A program made the position numbers and the translations under genes. Below the pieces are notes generated by a model. That model saw only the letters and a list, made by a program, of their open reading frames with translations, made no database searches and had not been told where the DNA came from. Shown here piece by piece: positions 3,753-28,420 of a stretch of 32,531 nt of DNA. The DNA comes from a virus (Duplodnaviria; Heunggongvirae; Uroviricota; Caudoviricetes). How positions within the stretch are numbered: the first letter of the stretch is position 1; the number at the start of each line of letters is the position of its first letter. Where the stretch lies: IMG/VR virus record IMGVR_UViG_2568526722_000005. One strand, given 5' to 3'.

Positions 3753-4074
3753 AACGCACACCTCCGGAAATACCTTCCCCAAGATGCATCAGTTCTTCGT
3801 CCGTTCGCTCCGGTATCCCGTTCTCTTCCGGTAAAAGGCTGAAATCAGCCACCGCAGCATCACTGCTACCGGACACCATTCTCACGATCAATGCCTTCAG
3901 CGAGGCAAACTGCGCATCCATCCACACATCACTGAAGCTCTGCATCCGGAAATAATCGCCCCACTCACCAAGCTCAGTGGCCGACATTTCCGACAGCATC
4001 CGCCGCCAGTCTGCCCGCCTGAACTCCCGGGCAAGCCGCATGACAAACTGCATTTCCCGCGTCAGGACTTTTCC
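3724..4074 (-). CDS. T: Tail assembly chaperone T segment, expressed as G-T fusion by -1 frameshift near the end of G
   Basis: ORF in the -1 frame relative to G, overlapping its 3' end; reading through the GGAAAAG run (4068..4074, minus strand) in -1 gives ...VLTREMQFVMRLAREF..., continuous with this ORF. Conserved lambda G/GT arrangement. Confidence 0.75.
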   Translation of the reverse strand, partial: GKVLTREMQFVMRLAREFRRADWRRMLSEMSATELGEWGDYFRMQSFSDVWMDAQFASLKALIVRMVSGSSDAAVADFSLLPEENGIPERTDEELMHLGEGISGGVRYGPDSQPGH

Positions 4075-4448
4075 GGCGTCAGCACCTCATGCTCCAAATC
4101 CCCGGCATTCTCAATGGCTCCCATACCGCTCAGCGACAGAACCATCTCCGCCCCCGCTCCCAGGGCATCATACGACCATGTTGTAATAACGGATGCGCAA
4201 AGCGTCTCAACATCCTGAGACTGTTCCGCATTCCACAGTGAGCGGGAAACCAGCCAGGCATTGATATCCATCCCCATCCGCAGAAAAGCAATCTGTCGTT
4301 CAGCCTCCGGCAGTTCTCCCTCTTCGGCATCAAACTTTGCCGTTCGCTGCTGAACAAACGCCAGATATTCAATTCTCTGCAGCCCGGACAGCTCACTGAG
4401 CACCACGGACTGCTTTTCATAATTAAACGTGCCCTGTTTCAGAAACAT
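4062..4448 (-). CDS. G: Tail assembly chaperone G (lambda gpG-like)
   Basis: ORF starting MFLKQGTFNYEKQSVVLSELSGLQRIEYLAF..., similar to lambda G (MFLKTESF...TLSELSALQRIEHLAL); sits between V and T/H. Confidence 0.85.
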   Translation of the reverse strand: MFLKQGTFNYEKQSVVLSELSGLQRIEYLAFVQQRTAKFDAEEGELPEAERQIAFLRMGMDINAWLVSRSLWNAEQSQDVETLCASVITTWSYDALGAGAEMVLSLSGMGAIENAGDLEHEVLTPEKS

Positions 4449-14960: not shown

Positions 14961-15166
14961 TTCATTTTCACTTTCTTAAATCTAACGACAGACGGCTAAC
15001 ATTTAAGTATTGTGAAATATTATCAAATGTAATCATCATTGATTTACAAAAGATACATTTTGCCCCGAAAGGATTCCTGTCAGAAACATCAAAAGATGAT
15101 GTTCTATACTGAGAACCATGGCAACACGGGCATCTAAAGTGAATATGGTTTGTAATATTTTCTACC

Positions 15167-15382
15167 TCAAAGTGCCACAACATGAACAGCCGCGGGGCCT
15201 TTAGGTCCGTTCTCAATACCAAATTCGACTTCCTGATTCTCAGTTAACGTTTTGAAATCGTTGCTCTGAATAGCTGAGAAATGGACAAACACATCTTTGC
15301 TACCATCTTTCGGCGTGATGAAACCAAAACCTTTTTCAGGGTTAAACCATTTCACTAAACCAGTCATTTTGTTAGACATCAT
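15167..15382 (-). CDS. Cold-shock protein, CspA family (CspB/CspI-like), prophage-borne
   Basis: [70 protein letters not shown] contains the RNP1/RNP2 motifs (KGFGFI, VFVHF); about 350 nt AT-rich upstream region consistent with a long csp 5' UTR. Confidence 0.9.
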
Positions 15383-15741
15383 TATTACCTTTTGAAGAAG
15401 TTAGCCCTTGGGCAGAATGGTCCGAAAAAAATATCAGAGAGAAAAACCAACAAGGAAATCTCAAGAGGTACAAATAATAAAATTATAACAATGACTGCTT
15501 CAGATAATTTTGTAACAAACCAGAACACCATTAACGCATGATTAACCAACCATAGCAAGGATTACTTTTGTAAAGAAAAACACACGAATGAAACAATAGC
15601 TTTATTTATTAATAAAACGTGTCATTCTGTCTAATGACCTTTTATCTTACCCTTAAGATTTCAAGGATTTTGACTCATGGAAGAGTCCTTTTTATTTAAA
15701 TTTCACATTCAGCGCTAAAAATAATCCGATTTAATATTAAT

Positions 15742-17656: not shown

Positions 17657-17937
17657 AGCCTCACCTCCGCAGATAACGGATGGTGTACACGGTTTGGTTC
17701 GAAGAAGGAAAGAAAGTAGGAAAGTTCTTTAAGTGATCGGTCGTACTCATCTATCTTTCATACTTACTCTCAACTATCAAAAGTACAGGATTTATTATGA
17801 AGTTATGGCCTGTGTTGACTGGCATTGCACTCTCTTTCACTCTTATAGCATGTAAGGCCCCGACACCACCTAAAGGTGTGCAGCCGATTACAAATTTTGA
17901 CGCCAACTGATCCTACCCACGTAATATGGACACAGGC

Positions 17938-18804
17938 CTAAGCGAGGTTCTTGTTTTCAAATTGTTCCGGACTGAGGCCGCCACACCAACTGTGCCGCCG
18001 CCACCGATTGTAATCACATTCGATATAATTAAACACCGTTGCCCGCATTATTTCCCGGCTGATAAAGTGTTCTCCATGGATACATTCCACTTTCAGCGAA
18101 TGAAAGAAGCTTTCCACGCAGGCATTATCGTAGCAGCAACCTTTTGCGCTCATACTTCCACGCAGATTATGCCGCTTCAGTTGCGCCTGATAATCTGCTG
18201 AACAGTACTGGCCTCCACGGTCCGTGTGAACGATAACGTTCCGGGGCCTCTTACGCCGCCACAGCGCCATCTGCAGGGCATCGCAGGCCAGTTGCGCCGT
18301 CATGCGTGGCGACATTGACCAGCCAATAACGGCACGTGACCACAGGTCAATGACCACTGCCAGATACAGCCAGCCTTCATCTGTACGTAAGTACGTGATG
18401 TCTCCTGCCCACTTCTGGTTCGGGCCACTGGCGTAAAAATCCTGCTCCAACAGATTTTCTGACACAGGCAGGCCGTGTGCGCGGTAGCTGACCGGGCTGA
18501 ACTTCCGGGAGGCCTTTGCCCTCAGTCCCTGACGGCGCAGGCTTGCCGCCACGGTTTTTACGTTAAAGGGGTAACCCTGAGCACGCAGTTCATCCGTCAG
18601 GCGTGGGGCACCGTAACGCTGTTTTGACCGGGTAAAAGCCGCGAGGACAACGCTGTCGCAGTGTTGGCGGAACTGCTGACGCGTGCTTATCCTTGTCCGC
18701 CGCTGACACCACGTATACCAGCCGCTGCGGGCCACCCGGAGCACGCGGCACATTGCTTTGATGCTGAACTCAGCCTGATGTTTTTCAATAAAGACATACT
18801 TCAT
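17938..18804 (-). CDS. insF: IS3 transposase OrfB (InsF)
   Basis: 288-aa [35 protein letters not shown]... recognised as IS3 InsF, with the DDE integrase-like core. Confidence 0.95.
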
Positions 18805-19100
18805 TTCAGGCGCTTCGCGAAGTATGTCGCGGCCTTTTGGAGGATAGCCAGCTCTTCATCCCGTTCTGCCAGCTGGCGTTTGAGACGTGCAATCTCGGTA
18901 GACATCTCCAGTTCACGTTCAGAAGACGTCTGCTGATTTTGCTGTTTACTGCGCCAGTTGTAGAGTTGTGATTCATACAGGCTGAGTTCACGGGCTGCGG
19001 CAGTAACACCGATGCGTTCAGCAAGCTTCAGGGCTTCACTGCGAAATTCAGGCGAATGCTGTTTACGGGGTTTTTTACTGGTTGATACTGTTTTTGTCAT
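18801..19100 (-). CDS. insE: IS3 OrfA (InsE), HTH protein; overlaps OrfB for frameshift fusion
   Basis: [53 protein letters not shown]... recognised as IS3 InsE. Confidence 0.9.
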
Positions 19101-19610
19101 GTGAGTCACCTCTGACTGAGAGTTTACTCACTTAGCCGCGTGTCCACTATTGCTGGGTAAGATCAAACCGCTACCTCGGAAAATGGTATGAAATAGCTCG
19201 CCTCGAGAACTGGTTCGAACGTGGTCTGGAACAGGTCAGCGCTACTTATGAAAAACGGAACGACGGAGGGATTCGCGTACTTAACCGTGGATACGATCCA
19301 ACGAAAAACAAATGGAGCGAGAGCGAAGGTAAAGCATACTTTACTGGAGATACTAAAACTGCAGCGTTGAAAGTTTCGTTTTTTGGCCCCTTCTATGGTG
19401 GCTATAATGTAATCAAGCTGGATGATGAGTATAAGTATGCTCTTGTCAGTGGTCCGAACAGAGAATACCTATGGATTCTGGCAAGGACCCAAACTATTCC
19501 AGATAATGTAAAAGCAGACTATGTGCGTACCGCTCAAAAGTTGGGATTCAATGTCAATGAACTATTATGGGTTAAACAATAAAATCCCCACCCGAAATGA
19601 TACTTATTAG

Positions 19611-21996: not shown

Positions 21997-22152
21997 TTAC
22001 TCCTCAGGTTCGTAAGCTGTGAAGACAGCGACCTCCGTCTGGCCGGTTCGGATTCGTACCTCGCAGAGGTCTTTCCTCGTTACCAGTGCCGTCACTATGA
22101 CGGTTAAACAGATGACGATCAGGGCGATTAACATCGCCTTTTGCTGCTTCAT
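21997..22152 (-). CDS. hokD: Hok/Gef-family membrane toxin (HokD/RelF-like), 51 aa
   Basis: MKQQKAMLIALIVICLTVIVTALVTRKDLCEVRIRTGQTEVAVFTAYEPEE matches K-12 HokD as I recall it; AGGAGAAG Shine-Dalgarno; the longer ORF to 22209 is an in-frame upstream extension. Confidence 0.9.
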   Translation of the reverse strand: MKQQKAMLIALIVICLTVIVTALVTRKDLCEVRIRTGQTEVAVFTAYEPEE

Positions 22153-22409
22153 AGCCTGCTTCTCCTTGCCTTTCGGCACGTAAGAGGCTAACCTACATGT
22201 GTCTAGCATGAAATTGGCCTCAGATTAATGTTAAGCGTCTTGCAGGACGCGTAATGTTAACTGGGGCTTTTCTCTACCTGCCGTTGGTGTTCGTGCCCGA
22301 GGCAGATAGCCTCAAGCACCCGCAGTCATTCTACTTAACTAAGATTTCCCCGCAAACCGTTTTGTCCAGCACAGTAAATATCCAACTAAACCAATGGAGT
22401 TCGCTGTAT

Positions 22410-23423: not shown

Positions 23424-23930
23424 TTAACTACCGCCCTTTCGGGCGGCCTCCTGATGTTCTGAGGGTGCAGAAATCCCTCCGGTTAAGGATTAAATTTTTA
23501 ACAGTGCTAAATTTAATTATTCAGTTCTGGATTTTGTCACCCTGCGTATCCGCGCTTTCCCGTTACGCTCAATCTGAATTAGCTTTTCTATATTTTTTCG
23601 CCTTTCCCGTTCCTCCTGGCGCAAGAGCCTTACATCATCTGCCAGTCTGGTTTCTCTTTTCGCCACAGAGAGCATCCAGTCAAATGGCTCCACAACTGCA
23701 CCTCAGATTTTACAGCGGACCTGACGCTCTTTTTCGTCAACCCGGACAGAAGCGTGATGGCAATATGGTCTTTCCGATGGCTCATAAAGAAAATTAACCT
23801 GATTACGAGGGTCATCCTCTTTTATCGGAAATAAAACGATATTGCTTAACTAATCCTCTGGTTTTATTTCCATGCTCCTCTCCTTTGATGCGAATGCCAG
23901 CGGTAATTGAAGCCTGATAGCTAATTTCAC

Positions 23931-25362: not shown

Positions 25363-25861
25363 TCCATCCAGCTTTTTGTTGGTATTGCTGTCGATACGCA
25401 AGTTTGAAAGCAATTGCTTTTTCTATAAGTTCGTCAGTTTCACGATCCACTACGGCAGGATCAGCAAAAAGCAGTCCGGATTCCACCACATCGCCATATT
25501 CTTTGTTTAACCCGGCGATCATGTACGTGATGCTTTTTCCGTCACTAATTTCACGATACAACCTGAAATCATTAATCCGGATAGCCTCCATAATTGCAGG
25601 CACTAGCGCCGTGAACTTTTCACGCTTATCCCTGGTGTCGATAGCCTTCCAGCGTTCGAATATCTTCACTCGATTAACGCCAAGCGCTCGCTGATCAACC
25701 GCGCCACCTTCATCTGTGACACGCTGAACATCGATGTTCGGGCGCTCTTTCAAAGCCCAGAATGCTTCAGTGATTAATATCGTCGCCTGCTCCTGTGTCA
25801 TTCCTGGTCGACATATCCAGGCATCCAGAGCCTCACGAGCCTGTTCAGGAGTGATTTTCAT
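25340..25861 (-). CDS. YdaT/CII-like early protein (hypothetical regulator), 173 aa
   Basis: ORF immediately downstream of the Cro-like gene, the position occupied by ydaT in Rac-type prophages; assignment by synteny only. Confidence 0.4.
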   Translation of the reverse strand: MKITPEQAREALDAWICRPGMTQEQATILITEAFWALKERPNIDVQRVTDEGGAVDQRALGVNRVKIFERWKAIDTRDKREKFTALVPAIMEAIRINDFRLYREISDGKSITYMIAGLNKEYGDVVESGLLFADPAVVDRETDELIEKAIAFKLAYRQQYQQKAGWNYEPSFC

Positions 25862-26072
25862 TGTTCAACCGCCCCGCCCGCTTCGTCTTACGATATTCGT
25901 CATAAACCTTGGGATCATACAGAAGCTCGCCGCCAGATGCCTCCTGTAGACGCATCGCGCGACCTTCAGGAACCAGCTCTTGCCATTGAGAAACAGCAGA
26001 TGGGTCAACGCCAGCAGCTTTCGCTACTTTGGCTTTCGTACCGTAAAAATTAATTACGTCTGATTTAAACAT
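25845..26072 (-). CDS. dicC: Cro-like HTH regulator (DicC-type)
   Basis: About 75-aa protein with a Cro-type HTH segment (NFYGTKAKVAKAAGVDPSAVSQWQELVPEGRAMRLQEASGGEL); divergent from the dicA-like repressor; GGAGG Shine-Dalgarno. Confidence 0.75.
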   Translation of the reverse strand: MFKSDVINFYGTKAKVAKAAGVDPSAVSQWQELVPEGRAMRLQEASGGELLYDPKVYDEYRKTKRAGRLNNENHS

Positions 26073-26149: not shown

Positions 26150-26557
26150 ATGAACGAGAAAACTTTAGGTCAACGCATTAGAGAAAGACGTAAGCAGGTA
26201 GGCTTAAGTCAAAACGGTTTAAGCAAAGCTGCTGGCGTATCTGGCTCATCAATTTCATTATGGGAAAGTGACCATACAGCCCCGCGCGGGCAAAATTTGC
26301 ATCGCCTCGCCGAGGTATTGCAATGTTCACCAACCTGGATACTGTTTGGCGACGAGGACAAAACACCAGCTCCCCCTGTTTCACTCGATAGTGCCTTAGA
26401 CTTATCGGAAGATGAGTTAGAGATGCTGCGTTTGTATCGCGCACTTCCTAAATCAGAGCAACAAGCACAACTCAGCGAACTCCGCGCCCGCGTTGAGAAT
26501 TTTAATCGCCTGTTCACCGAGCTATTAGAGGCTCGCAAACGCAACAAGCATCAATAA
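26150..26557 (+). CDS. dicA: XRE-family HTH repressor, DicA-like
   Basis: 135-aa protein MNEKTLGQRIRERRKQVGLSQNGLSKAAGVSGSSISLWESDHTAPRGQNLHRLAEVLQCSPTWILFGDEDK... closely resembles K-12 DicA. Confidence 0.85.
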   Translation: MNEKTLGQRIRERRKQVGLSQNGLSKAAGVSGSSISLWESDHTAPRGQNLHRLAEVLQCSPTWILFGDEDKTPAPPVSLDSALDLSEDELEMLRLYRALPKSEQQAQLSELRARVENFNRLFTELLEARKRNKHQ

Positions 26558-26749: not shown

Positions 26750-26902
26750 ATGGATACTATCGATCTTGGCAACAGCGAATCTCTGGTATGTGGCGTGTTC
26801 CCCAACCAGGACGGTACGTTCACCGCGATGACATATACCAAAAGCAAAACGTTTAAAACCGAATCTGGCGCGCGTTGCTGGTTAGCCAGAAACACTGACT
26901 GA
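26750..26902 (+). CDS. ydfA: YdfA-like small protein, 50 aa
   Basis: MDTIDLGNSESLVCGVFPNQDGTFTAMTYTKSKTFKTESGARCWLARNTD closely resembles K-12 YdfA; GAGG Shine-Dalgarno. Confidence 0.75.
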   Translation: MDTIDLGNSESLVCGVFPNQDGTFTAMTYTKSKTFKTESGARCWLARNTD

Positions 26903-26913
26903 TGAGGCTGACG

Positions 26914-27279
26914 ATGGAATTTAAAGATTTACCGTCTGATGTACAGAAAACAGCAGCTCATACATTGCATTCTGTGCTGCGAGAAATCGGGAAAGATATT
27001 GCAAGCGAGCCAGCAAAAGATCTGGCCCGGAAAATCAAGACCGCTTTCGTTGAGCTTTATAATGTTGGCACTGACTCTGAAACTGTCGAGACCAAGACCG
27101 TAAGTTCACCAATATTCTCACTTGAGCCAGGCGTATTAGCAGGTGAAATATGCACCGAGATTTCCAGCGAACTGCTTCCGGTAATACGAGAAGCAATTTG
27201 CCGTCGCGGTTTGGATGGAAGTTACGATCATGACGTCCTGCAAGTTCTCAGGACAATGGTGACTTCACTGGGGATTTGA
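26914..27279 (+). CDS. Hypothetical 121-aa protein in the dicB operon (ydfB/ydfC position)
   Basis: ORF MEFKDLPSDVQKTAAHTLHSVLREIG... with GAGG Shine-Dalgarno, translationally close to ydfA. Confidence 0.5.
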   Translation: MEFKDLPSDVQKTAAHTLHSVLREIGKDIASEPAKDLARKIKTAFVELYNVGTDSETVETKTVSSPIFSLEPGVLAGEICTEISSELLPVIREAICRRGLDGSYDHDVLQVLRTMVTSLGI

Positions 27280-27448
27280 TCCCTGCGTCCTCTAACCTTT
27301 TGATATAGCGGTCCTCCAAGAAGCGGTAAATTTTGTCGAAATCATCTTTCCCCTCTGGTTTATTCAGAGGATTACAGGACCCGTAAGTAGCGGCATACAT
27401 TTCAACCGTTTTATCAAAAATATAAGAGACAAATTCTTCTTTAGTCAT
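27248..27448 (-). CDS. Hypothetical 66-aa protein, antisense within the dicB operon
   Basis: MTKEEFVSYIFDKTVEMYAATYGSCNPLNKPEGKDDFDKIYRFLEDRYIKRLEDAGIKSPVKSPLS; AAGGA Shine-Dalgarno 8 nt upstream; convergent with the upstream plus-strand ORF and overlapping its 3' end. Confidence 0.4.
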   Translation of the reverse strand: MTKEEFVSYIFDKTVEMYAATYGSCNPLNKPEGKDDFDKIYRFLEDRYIKRLEDAGIKSPVKSPLS

Positions 27449-27723
27449 ATAGATTTCCTTCTTGGTTATTCGGGATAAGAAGGATACCACCTCGCCTGAC
27501 GTGGTTAAAAGCAGGCACACAACACGAAAGCGCACGGCGAAGTTCGTCTCACTGTACGGTGTCGTTAAATTTAATTCGACCGTGCGCTTCCGGTTGTGGC
27601 AACCCGCGAAATGGCGCGGCGGTAAGTATGGCGGGGTTATTCCTTCCCCGTTGAGGACACCGAGTTGTCAGGTTGACCATACGCTTAAGTGACAACCCCG
27701 CTGCAACGCCCTCTGTTATCAAT

Positions 27724-27780
27724 TTTCTGGTGACGTTTGGCGGTATCAGTTTTACTCCGTGACTGCTCTGCCGCCGTTTT
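27724..27780 (+). ncRNA. dicF: DicF small regulatory RNA
   Basis: TTTCTGGTGACGTTTGGCGGTATCAGTTTTACTCCGTGACTGCTCTGCCGCC followed by GTTTTT matches the K-12 DicF sRNA as I recall it; located between the ydfABC-like genes and dicB as in Qin; preceded by a highly structured region. Confidence 0.85.
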
Positions 27781-27950
27781 TAAAGTGAATTTTGTGATGC
27801 GGTGAATGCGGCTAAGCGCACGCGGAACAGTTAAAACCAAAAACAGTGTTATGGGTGGATTCTCTGTATCCGGCGTTAATTGTTAACTGGTTAACGTCAC
27901 CTGGAGGCACCAGGCACTGCATCACAAAATTCATTGTTGAGGACGCGATA

Positions 27951-28139
27951 ATGAAAACGTTATTACCAAACGTTAATACGTCTGAAGGTTGTTTTGAAAT
28001 TGGTGTCACTATCAGTAACCCTGTATTTACTGAAGATGCCATTAACAAGAGAAAACAAGAACGGGAGCTATTAAATAAAATATGCATTGTTTCAATGCTG
28101 GCTCGTTTACGTCTGATGCCAAAAGGATGTGCACAATGA
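27951..28139 (+). CDS. dicB: Cell-division inhibitor DicB, 62 aa
   Basis: MKTLLPNVNTSEGCFEIGVTISNPVFTEDAINKRKQERELLNKICIVSMLARLRLMPKGCAQ matches K-12 DicB. Confidence 0.9.
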   Translation: MKTLLPNVNTSEGCFEIGVTISNPVFTEDAINKRKQERELLNKICIVSMLARLRLMPKGCAQ

Positions 28140-28327
28140 ATTCAGCATTTGCGCTTGTTCTGACAGTTTTTCTTGTTTCCGGAGAGCCAGTTGATATTGC
28201 AGTCAGTGTTCACAAGACAATGCAGGAGTGTATGACTGCAGCAACCGAACAGAAAATTCCCGGTAACTGTTACCCGGTCGATAAAGTTATTCACCAGGAT
28301 AATATCGAAATCCCGGCAGGTCTTTAA
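28136..28327 (+). CDS. ydfD: YdfD-like small membrane/lysis protein, 63 aa
   Basis: MNSAFALVLTVFLVSGEPVDIAVSVHKTMQECMTAATEQKIPGNCYPVDKVIHQDNIEIPAGL matches K-12 YdfD; start overlaps the dicB stop (ATGA). Confidence 0.85.
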   Translation: MNSAFALVLTVFLVSGEPVDIAVSVHKTMQECMTAATEQKIPGNCYPVDKVIHQDNIEIPAGL

Positions 28328-28420
28328 AACAGTTCCGTAATAAATATCCGGTTTCATTCTTATATGCCAGCAATGGCAGGGATTTGTTCATCCTTAAATC
28401 TGTCATGAGGTTAAAACAAA

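Follow-up and report, generated by a model that had tools for sequence, protein, structure and literature searches.

What does the folded ribonucleic acid (RNA) around the small RNA (sRNA) DicF contribute to the expression of a prophage operon? The question arises at positions 27480-28327 of a stretch of Caudoviricetes DNA of 32,531 nucleotides (nt) (IMG/VR record IMGVR_UViG_2568526722_000005; hereafter the window), where a first-pass annotation made from the sequence alone had noticed DicF, a region upstream of it packed with inverted repeats, and the genes dicB and ydfD. We conclude, with a probability of about 0.9, that the dicBF cassette of a Qin/mEp460-like lambdoid prophage occupies this interval, that it lies in the leftward early (pL-type) operon, and that it works by the mechanism of Escherichia coli K-12, with a proposed added role of a conserved RNA domain, here called U, in the 190-nt DicF species. 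The cassette is already known, being the standard dicBF unit in a fairly complete Qin/mEp460-type prophage. DicF, DicB, YdfD and the way RNase III and RNase E mature DicF have been under study since 1989-1990, and the finding as such is textbook biology of little significance. As a natural phage version of the cassette that is apparently complete, the locus has its use: exonuclease, xis and int are intact, rem is present, and the arrangement is identical to that of the viable phage mEp460. What it adds is that a conserved domain, and not a locus-specific spacer, makes up part of the RNA fold ahead of DicF: lambdoid phages and P1 keep this domain before a terminator and exchange the sRNA.

A covariance-model search, as suggested by the first-pass annotation, identified DicF: Rfam RF00039 matched positions 27725-27776 on the plus strand over its full length (model positions 1-52) with 72.5 bits against a gathering score of 48 (E = 2.5e-14); it was one of three matches above the gathering score in a scan of the full window. 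The 53-nt DicF of K-12 (b1574) aligns to 27724-27776 with 52/53 positions identical, and the sole change is C to G at 27776, the last base. The first-pass annotation had called DicF recognisable and had singled out the seed as the place where a divergence would matter. The 5' single-stranded seed and the loop, which pair with ftsZ, xylR, pykA and manX, are the same as in K-12. A GGCGG...CCGCC hairpin followed by U5 at 27777-27781 forms the terminator. By sequence identity, DicF of this prophage would repress translation of ftsZ and cause filamentation.

As had been proposed, dicB and ydfD follow with an ATGA overlap of stop and start codon (28136-28139). Both products match the expected Pfam families and their K-12 counterparts (Table 1), YdfD differing by the substitutions A6V and K27R, and the RefSeq annotation of an identical E. 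coli locus likewise lists dicB and ydfD. The label "division and membrane-targeting cassette" is right as to the identities of DicB and YdfD, but "membrane-targeting" is a loose term for YdfD, a lysis protein that inhibits IspG of the MEP pathway (PMC8835842).

From 27560 to at least 28420, alignment with Qin of K-12 showed only seven mismatches (27663, 27776, 27800, 27814, 28022, 28152 and 28215). The dicBF cassette of K-12 (b1574, b1575, b1576) is arranged and spaced in the same way between the RNase III stem and the end of ydfD, with 7 mismatches in ~860 nt, and it shares with the window the chromosomal site adjoining rspB. In the alignment with MG1655, similarity is gone upstream of ~27515. 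For the segment 27240-28420 (1181 nt), which includes DicF, dicB and ydfD, several E. coli chromosomes have an identical copy (100%); of the 5426 complete E. coli genomes, 500 cover at least 80% of it at one place and 4750 contain a partial match. The dicBF operon is also recognisable from its surroundings: DicA/DicC-type immunity genes lie upstream on the expected strands and are followed by ydfA. In the viable phage mEp460_ev081 the arrangement from repressor to excisionase is the same as in the window, an antisense open reading frame (ORF) included. Phage Tritos has the K-12-type arrangement, and the dicBF gene order is common to Tritos, mEp460_ev081 and K-12.

The processing of DicF is known from K-12. 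According to PMC10448788, a polycistronic transcript begins at dicBp upstream of ydfA and no internal promoter was found; the 190-nt DicF species needs RNase III, the 53-nt species needs RNase E, and inactivation of RNase E leads to accumulation of the 190-nt species. In PMC5069750 and PMC9438474, both of which cite Faubladier et al. 1990, Rho-independent termination accounts for the 3' end of the 53-nt form, and a 72-nt DicF results from an RNase III cut of the read-through transcript. The RNase III transcriptome papers examined give no cut coordinates for dicF. In order to place the cuts in the window, we counted RNA lengths from the ends of DicF.

All three inverted repeats that the first-pass annotation had quoted were recovered by a repeat finder. 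A long imperfect stem, S1, has the pair GCGCACGG/CCGTGCGC at its core; in it, CGAAAGCGCACGG (27525-27537) pairs with CCGTGCGCTTCCG (27580-27592). The other two quoted repeats form hairpins A and C of U. Counting 190 nt back from 27776-27781 leads to 27587-27592, within the 3' arm of S1, and S1 is therefore the probable RNase III site at which the 190-nt species gets its 5' end. The proposal that the upstream repeats belong to a processed precursor agrees with this predicted end in the GCGCACGG/CCGTGCGC stem and with the 190-nt (RNase III) and 53-nt (RNase E) species of K-12. The first ~35 nt (27480-27514) are not obviously in the DicF fold; they lie just upstream of the start of the antisense ORF (27448) and are conserved with a Salmonella locus within its stem module. 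S1, which spans the mosaic boundary with K-12, is still paired there, with an unrelated loop and only wobble-compatible changes in the arm, and it is paired in the Salmonella locus despite different arm sequences.

On the 3' side of U, the 5' end of K-12 DicF falls directly behind an A/U-rich single-stranded linker. The RNase E cut that yields the 53-nt form would lie at 27723/27724, where AUCAAU/UUUCUG fits the usual A/U-rich context of RNase E. Counting 72 nt from 27724 leads to 27795, in the middle of the 5' arm of a helix that closes the structured spacer between DicF and dicB, here called D. D is accordingly a candidate for the 3'-side RNase III site, and the 72-nt DicF would end at ~27795. 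Both stems and the linker are conserved with K-12.

Taken over from K-12, with S1, U and D assigned here, the course of events would be as follows. Transcription of the operon would start at a DicA-repressed promoter upstream of ydfA. RNase III would cut S1 and release the 190-nt species, of which U would be the structured 5' body, between S1 and the RNase E site. RNase E would cut the linker to give the 53-nt DicF with the 3' end of its own intrinsic terminator, and read-through transcripts would be cut by RNase III in the downstream helix D, giving the 72-nt DicF and a free dicB-ydfD message. DicF would then, with Hfq, repress ftsZ, xylR, pykA and manX; DicB would direct MinC to the septum and block phages that use ManYZ; and YdfD would lyse cells by inhibiting IspG (cassette functions: PMC5069750, PMC6832061, PMC8835842, PMC10448788). 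RNase E likewise frees stable sRNAs of the MicL, CpxQ and SroC type, which have their own terminator, from longer transcripts by cutting an A/U-rich linker with structure on its flanks (PMC9438474). In contrast to these, the DicF unit is bracketed by two RNase III sites, and its 5' body is conserved and transferable instead of locus-specific.

Folding of 27480-27790, a check proposed by the first-pass annotation, was carried out and gave a modest result (z = -2.46; -2.39 for 27515-27724). The thermodynamic case for the upstream fold is modest, and the evidence for a real structure comes from comparison. The strongest fold of the interval, which had been overlooked, lies downstream of DicF: 27777-27960 folds with a minimum free energy (MFE) of -65.5 kcal/mol (z = -5.42), and none of 200 shuffled sequences was as stable.

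U is a multi-helix domain with a closing stem, three hairpins (A to C), a short stem P3 and a proposed pseudoknot between GUAUGG and the loop of hairpin C (Table 1). Our own covariance model of it, R1, scored 151 bits at 27590-27715. In a structure-aware alignment of 29 distinct sequences, 94.7% of the cells of the proposed pairs were paired, compared to 29-56% in controls with slid partners; 10 pairs had changed on both sides (slid controls, 1-4), and the observed covariation score was reached by 0/500 shuffles. A MAFFT alignment led to the same covariation outcome. RNAalifold predicted the nested helices independently, with 7 covarying pairs, and the single-sequence MFE structure of 27590-27710 contains the same helices. 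Loop and junction nucleotides are nearly invariant. The stem of hairpin B carries compensatory changes and indels, which among the homologues amount to -1, +1, +2, +3 and +4 nt, and its loop always retains UCCUU, CUCC or UCUU.

The upstream repeats might be incidental, either chance palindromes or a by-product of constraint on a coding frame. The low fold z-scores would agree with this (~-2.4 upstream of DicF, -0.5 for U alone), as would ORFs of 31-76 amino acids (aa) over the region on both strands and the hypothetical proteins annotated over U in cdtI, mEp460 and pPE4. Indels of -1 to +4 nt in hairpin B, however, would break any reading frame and so exclude a coding explanation of U. The compensatory changes in four nested helices and the pseudoknot, the persistence of S1 pairing around a replaced loop, and the RNase III dependence of the 190-nt species, shown experimentally (PMC10448788), also contradict it, and we regard incidental repeats as very improbable.

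Three known kinds of sequence were considered for U and rejected. Protein-coding DNA was ruled out by the frame-breaking indels together with the compensatory changes. A tRNA- or tmRNA-like element was not supported, as ARAGORN found 0 genes in the whole window and no Rfam tRNA match was obtained. A known RNA family was ruled out because Rfam at E <= 10 gave no match to U; across 27200-28000 this search returned only DicF, a sub-threshold STnc100 and a chance match to tsr32. No structural description of U was found in the literature searched, which lacked key older papers, so a prior description is possible.

One feature links U to its upstream neighbour. The 5' strand of the U closing stem (GUUGUG) is at the same time the end of the 3' arm of S1. 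Since both stems use GUUGUG, U would close only after RNase III has removed the competing 5' arm of S1.

The conserved loop of hairpin B bears on the possibility that U is itself active in trans, as a species of ~180-190 nt that binds a protein or the ribosome or uses its anti-Shine-Dalgarno-like loop, with the 3' hairpin serving as terminator or Hfq handle. The pyrimidine motif of this loop is constant despite the changes in its stem, conservation of U far exceeds that of the sRNA module that follows (78-89% between lambdoids and P1/P7, with unalignable flanks), and PMC10448788 reports that the 190-nt species builds up in stationary phase and is stable there. Such an RNA has no known target or partner, the 53-nt RNA suffices on its own to reproduce the published phenotypes of DicF, and any pyrimidine-rich loop looks complementary to a Shine-Dalgarno sequence. 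We consider a trans-acting U unlikely.

A distant BLAST search of 27500-27960 against phage genomes revealed that 27593-27715 travels alone among phages, with flanks that cannot be aligned. Identity of this piece is 88.6% in cdtI, Stx2c-converting phages, Ayreon and 2H10, 81-85% in Salmonella phage F1055 and phage pPE4, and 78-83% in P1, P7 and ~500 P1-like plasmids. A pattern scan of IMG/VR added 120 further U loci with 82 distinct sequences; among the plasmids of PLSDB only P1/P7-like and F1055-like copies were present. A scan of the genome collection with a DicF pattern found 8 loci.

What follows U is variable. A hairpin with a T-run lies 42-79 nt downstream of U in 130 of 132 copies, and the remaining type has it at ~87 nt. 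The module behind U occurs in ~10 sequence variants, with canonical DicF in ~80 of 135 copies. In several variants the stem base GGCGG/CCGCC is retained while the 5' single-stranded sequence and the loop are different, and the hairpins of the P1 and F1055 types are unrelated. No Rfam DicF match was obtained in the cdtI-, F1055-, pPE4- and P1/P7-type U loci with non-aligning flanks. In pPE4, U lies between a DicA-type repressor gene and kil; the sRNA/terminator module is tandemly duplicated (L134, 2590-2770) and is followed by a D-type spacer and a kil-like gene instead of dicB. Conversely, a Salmonella enterica locus (L005, 3640-3800, minus strand) has a DicF-like hairpin of 60.6 bits, above the Rfam gathering score, that comes without the DicF 5' seed and without U and is directly abutted by S1, the RNase III-type stem. 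U without DicF, a DicF-like hairpin without U and the exchanged hairpins indicate that S1, U, the sRNA module and D are separable modules.

Homologues of U also occur in the leader of the ban operon of P1 and P7 (78-83% identity; 97-107 bits with R1), ahead of an intrinsic terminator and within an early operon under repressor control. In P1 and P7, U starts ~22-25 nt after the Pban start, and P1/P7 would therefore need no RNase III stem. In P1 the span from promoter to terminator (GCCCAUCUUCGGGUGGGC-U6) is ~179 nt, close to the length of the 190-nt species. Unlike the window, P1/P7 have no DicF seed, no Rfam DicF match and an unrelated terminator, and tRNA genes and tciA/terB follow instead of dicB. 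The P1 record marks a "dicF-like region" at the U homologue, so the similarity has been seen before. In cdtI, U lies ~280 nt after a strong pL-like promoter with 11/12 consensus matches. This promoter (TTGACA-16-CATAAT; L012, 2184-2500) is flanked by an operator-like palindrome, and the annotation shows no ORF between it and U on that strand; the hypothetical minus-strand ORF that covers U in cdtI is probably spurious.

This distribution leads to a tentative proposal, which we hold with clearly less than even confidence: U may be an undescribed RNA family with a function of its own, in which a constant pseudoknotted 5' body is combined with an interchangeable seed and terminator, DicF being the commonest cargo, and which controls read-through or processing or acts in trans. 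Such RNAs would head repressor-controlled early operons in lambdoid phages and P1-like phage-plasmids. If U governs sRNA maturation or read-through, the expression of dicB and the recombination genes beyond a terminator, in phages without an annotated N gene, would be explained, and U would be a reusable scaffold for phage-borne sRNAs.

The position of U before a terminator also invites another explanation, namely that U is a cis regulator of read-through into dicB, ydfD and the genes for recombination, excision and integration, either a put-like antiterminator RNA or an attenuator that responds to a ligand or protein, and that DicF is a by-product of the "off" state. U stands directly upstream of a terminator-like hairpin in all but two of the 132 copies although the hairpins differ, it heads repressor-controlled early operons in P1/P7 and cdtI (Pban being controlled by C1) with genes beyond the terminator, no N-like antiterminator gene is annotated in the pL-type operons examined, and its nearly invariant loops and junctions are aptamer-like. 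On the other hand, Northern blots of K-12 published in PMC10448788 show the ydfABC-dicF transcript, terminated at DicF, as a major species and nothing that extends beyond ydfD, an argument against processive antitermination. Furthermore, there is a single copy of U per prophage and 0 in the rightward operon, no covariance-model match was found in HK022 nt 22000-36000, no conserved alternative pairing of U with the varied terminators was seen, and the DicF-like terminator of Salmonella comes without U. Altogether, a cis regulator of this kind appears improbable.

Two specific versions of such a regulator were rejected. For a riboswitch-style terminator/antiterminator, inspection by eye gave only 4 base pairs (bp; CCGC/GCGG) in the DicF version, and these were not conserved with the P1 or F1055 terminators. 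For a homologue of HK022 put, neither sequence homology nor a two-stem-loop architecture in both early operons was found: blastn gave no match, and R1 with filters off on HK022 22000-36000 returned noise below 8 bits. The likeness to put is positional only, both being a structured RNA early in a pL-type transcript, before the first terminator, in a lambdoid without an annotated N gene. While put consists of two stem-loops without a pseudoknot and occurs in two copies per genome, U combines three hairpins with a closing stem and a pseudoknot and occurs once per prophage.

We therefore return to U as part of the DicF processing unit: most probably, U stabilises the 190-nt intermediate or positions the RNase E cut. 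That statement is one we infer, and this is the first of several points that weigh against our reading of the cassette. All functional statements for the cassette are transferred from K-12 by near-identity and are to be taken as predictions. The RNase III cuts were positioned by counting RNA lengths. The MFE of U alone is no better than that of shuffled sequences (z = -0.5), the covariation sample comprises few independent lineages (Qin/cdtI-type lambdoids, P1 and P7), and the pseudoknot is supported by a single covarying pair (U-A, U-G, C-G). Finally, the divergence from K-12 upstream of the cassette, with ydfB/ydfC replaced and the antisense ORF present, could alter transcript levels or add double-stranded RNA.

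The spacer D was compared as well. Its helix of 20-30 bp closes the whole DicF-dicB spacer and is retained in 15 variants, including those in which dicB is replaced by a kil-like gene or another small ORF. Variation of the helix among these 15 variants is one-sided and wobble-compatible only, with 0 compensatory double changes. In cdtI-type phages a non-homologous stem of ~20 bp stands at the position of D. Parts of the DicF-dicB spacer match P7 and D6 just upstream of terB. Positions 27774-27983 on the plus strand, which include the hairpin CACCUGGAGGCACCAGGCAC, matched Rfam STnc100 (RF02076) over the full length at E = 1e-5, and membership in this family was rejected because 34.5 bits is below the gathering score of 47. 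STnc100/PasD prophage sRNAs are located in late regions near Q and lysis genes (bioRxiv 10.64898/2026.05.13.724894), whereas D separates an sRNA from a division inhibitor. It was also considered whether the U tract of the DicF terminator masks the Shine-Dalgarno sequence of dicB (27777-27783/27937-27943 in the MFE structure); the pairs are weak U-G pairs and are missing from the consensus fold of variants with other downstream genes, and we make no claim for it.

Table 1. Features of the dicBF operon and its surroundings in the window.
Feature	Position	Strand	Basis
P22_Cro-type gene (DicA/DicC-type immunity)	25845-26072	-	Pfam/annotation
HTH_3 repressor (DicA/DicC-type immunity gene)	26150-26557	+	Pfam/annotation
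ydfA homologue (DUF1391), first gene of dicBF-type operon	26750-26902	+	Pfam, 94 bits; DUF1391 annotation in identical E. coli locus
125-aa ORF in place of K-12 ydfB/ydfC (annotated from 26914, 121 aa)	26902-27279	+	phrog_33007, E = 4.6e-82
66-aa ORF antisense to operon transcript	27248-27448	-	phrog_34441, E = 1.5e-50; WP_000159335.1 hypothetical protein
S1, long imperfect stem	27515-27600 (5' arm 27515-27541, 3' arm ~27575-27600)	+	inverted repeats, MFE fold
U, conserved multi-helix domain, ~115 nt	27593-27707	+	own covariance model R1, covariation
U closing stem	27593-27600/27700-27707	+	
U hairpin A, CCGCG/CGCGG	27604-27608/27615-27619	+	inverted repeat
U stem P3, 4 bp	27620-27623/27659-27662	+	
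U proposed pseudoknot, GUAUGG/CCAUAC in hairpin C loop	27626-27631/27677-27682	+	
U hairpin B, variable, pyrimidine-rich loop	27632-27636/27646-27650	+	
U hairpin C, GTTGTCA/TGACAAC	27664-27670/27690-27696	+	inverted repeat
A/U-rich single-stranded linker	27708-27723	+	K-12 DicF 5' end aligns to 27724
DicF sRNA with terminator hairpin and U5	27724-27781 (53-nt form 27724-27776)	+	RF00039; K-12 identity
D, structured spacer; long helix enclosing three hairpins	27777-27943 (helix core 27785-27804/27915-27934)	+	19-nt inverted repeat, 95% complementary
dicB, 62 aa, cell-division inhibitor	27951-28139	+	Pfam PF05358, 136.8 bits (cut-off 27); 100% identical to K-12 DicB
ydfD, 63 aa, lysis protein	28136-28327	+	Pfam DUF1482 (PF07358), 91.8 bits (cut-off 25); 61/63 identical to K-12
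Exonuclease, intact, 823 aa	28421-30892	+	Pfam Rv2179c-like exonuclease domain, 226.5 bits, residues 642-813; annotated exonuclease

The window as a whole is a Qin-like prophage adjoining rspB, with integrase, excisionase, terminase, portal, capsid and tail genes and with rem, hokD/sok, cspI, Q, lysis genes and the exonuclease gene. Compared with Qin of K-12 it is far more complete: exonuclease, xis and int are intact and there is no IS2, whereas K-12 has at the position of the exonuclease only the ydfE pseudogene, interrupted by IS2. A related annotated genome also places rem, an antirepressor of DicA, in the prophage.

Upstream of the cassette, the 125-aa ORF had no match in a Pfam search. 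The antisense 66-aa ORF overlaps its 3' end by 32 nt, and convergent transcription at this site could lead to double-stranded RNA or interference with the operon. In the Salmonella locus (L005, ~3860-4090) an unrelated antisense ORF occupies the corresponding slot. Downstream, a weak terminator-like hairpin (TGCCAGCAATGGCA) with a T-rich tail is present at 28365-28388 on the plus strand, between ydfD and the exonuclease gene; it may be where the counterpart of the 1608-nt ydfABC-dicFB-ydfD transcript, reported for K-12, has its 3' end. The exonuclease has a C-terminal Rv2179c-like domain of the 3'-5' exoribonuclease type and a long acidic low-complexity middle.

In the closest annotated genome, NZ_AP021891.1, the prophage carries ISApl1 (L137, 10756-11826), which has no counterpart at window positions 23826-23828, and window positions 17908-19165 have no alignment to that genome. 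Besides DicF, the Rfam scan of the window identified the sok antitoxin RNA (107.8 bits; 22147-22321, minus strand), adjoining hokD, and a cspA-type thermoregulator (111.1 bits; 15121-15536, minus strand) in the cspI leader.

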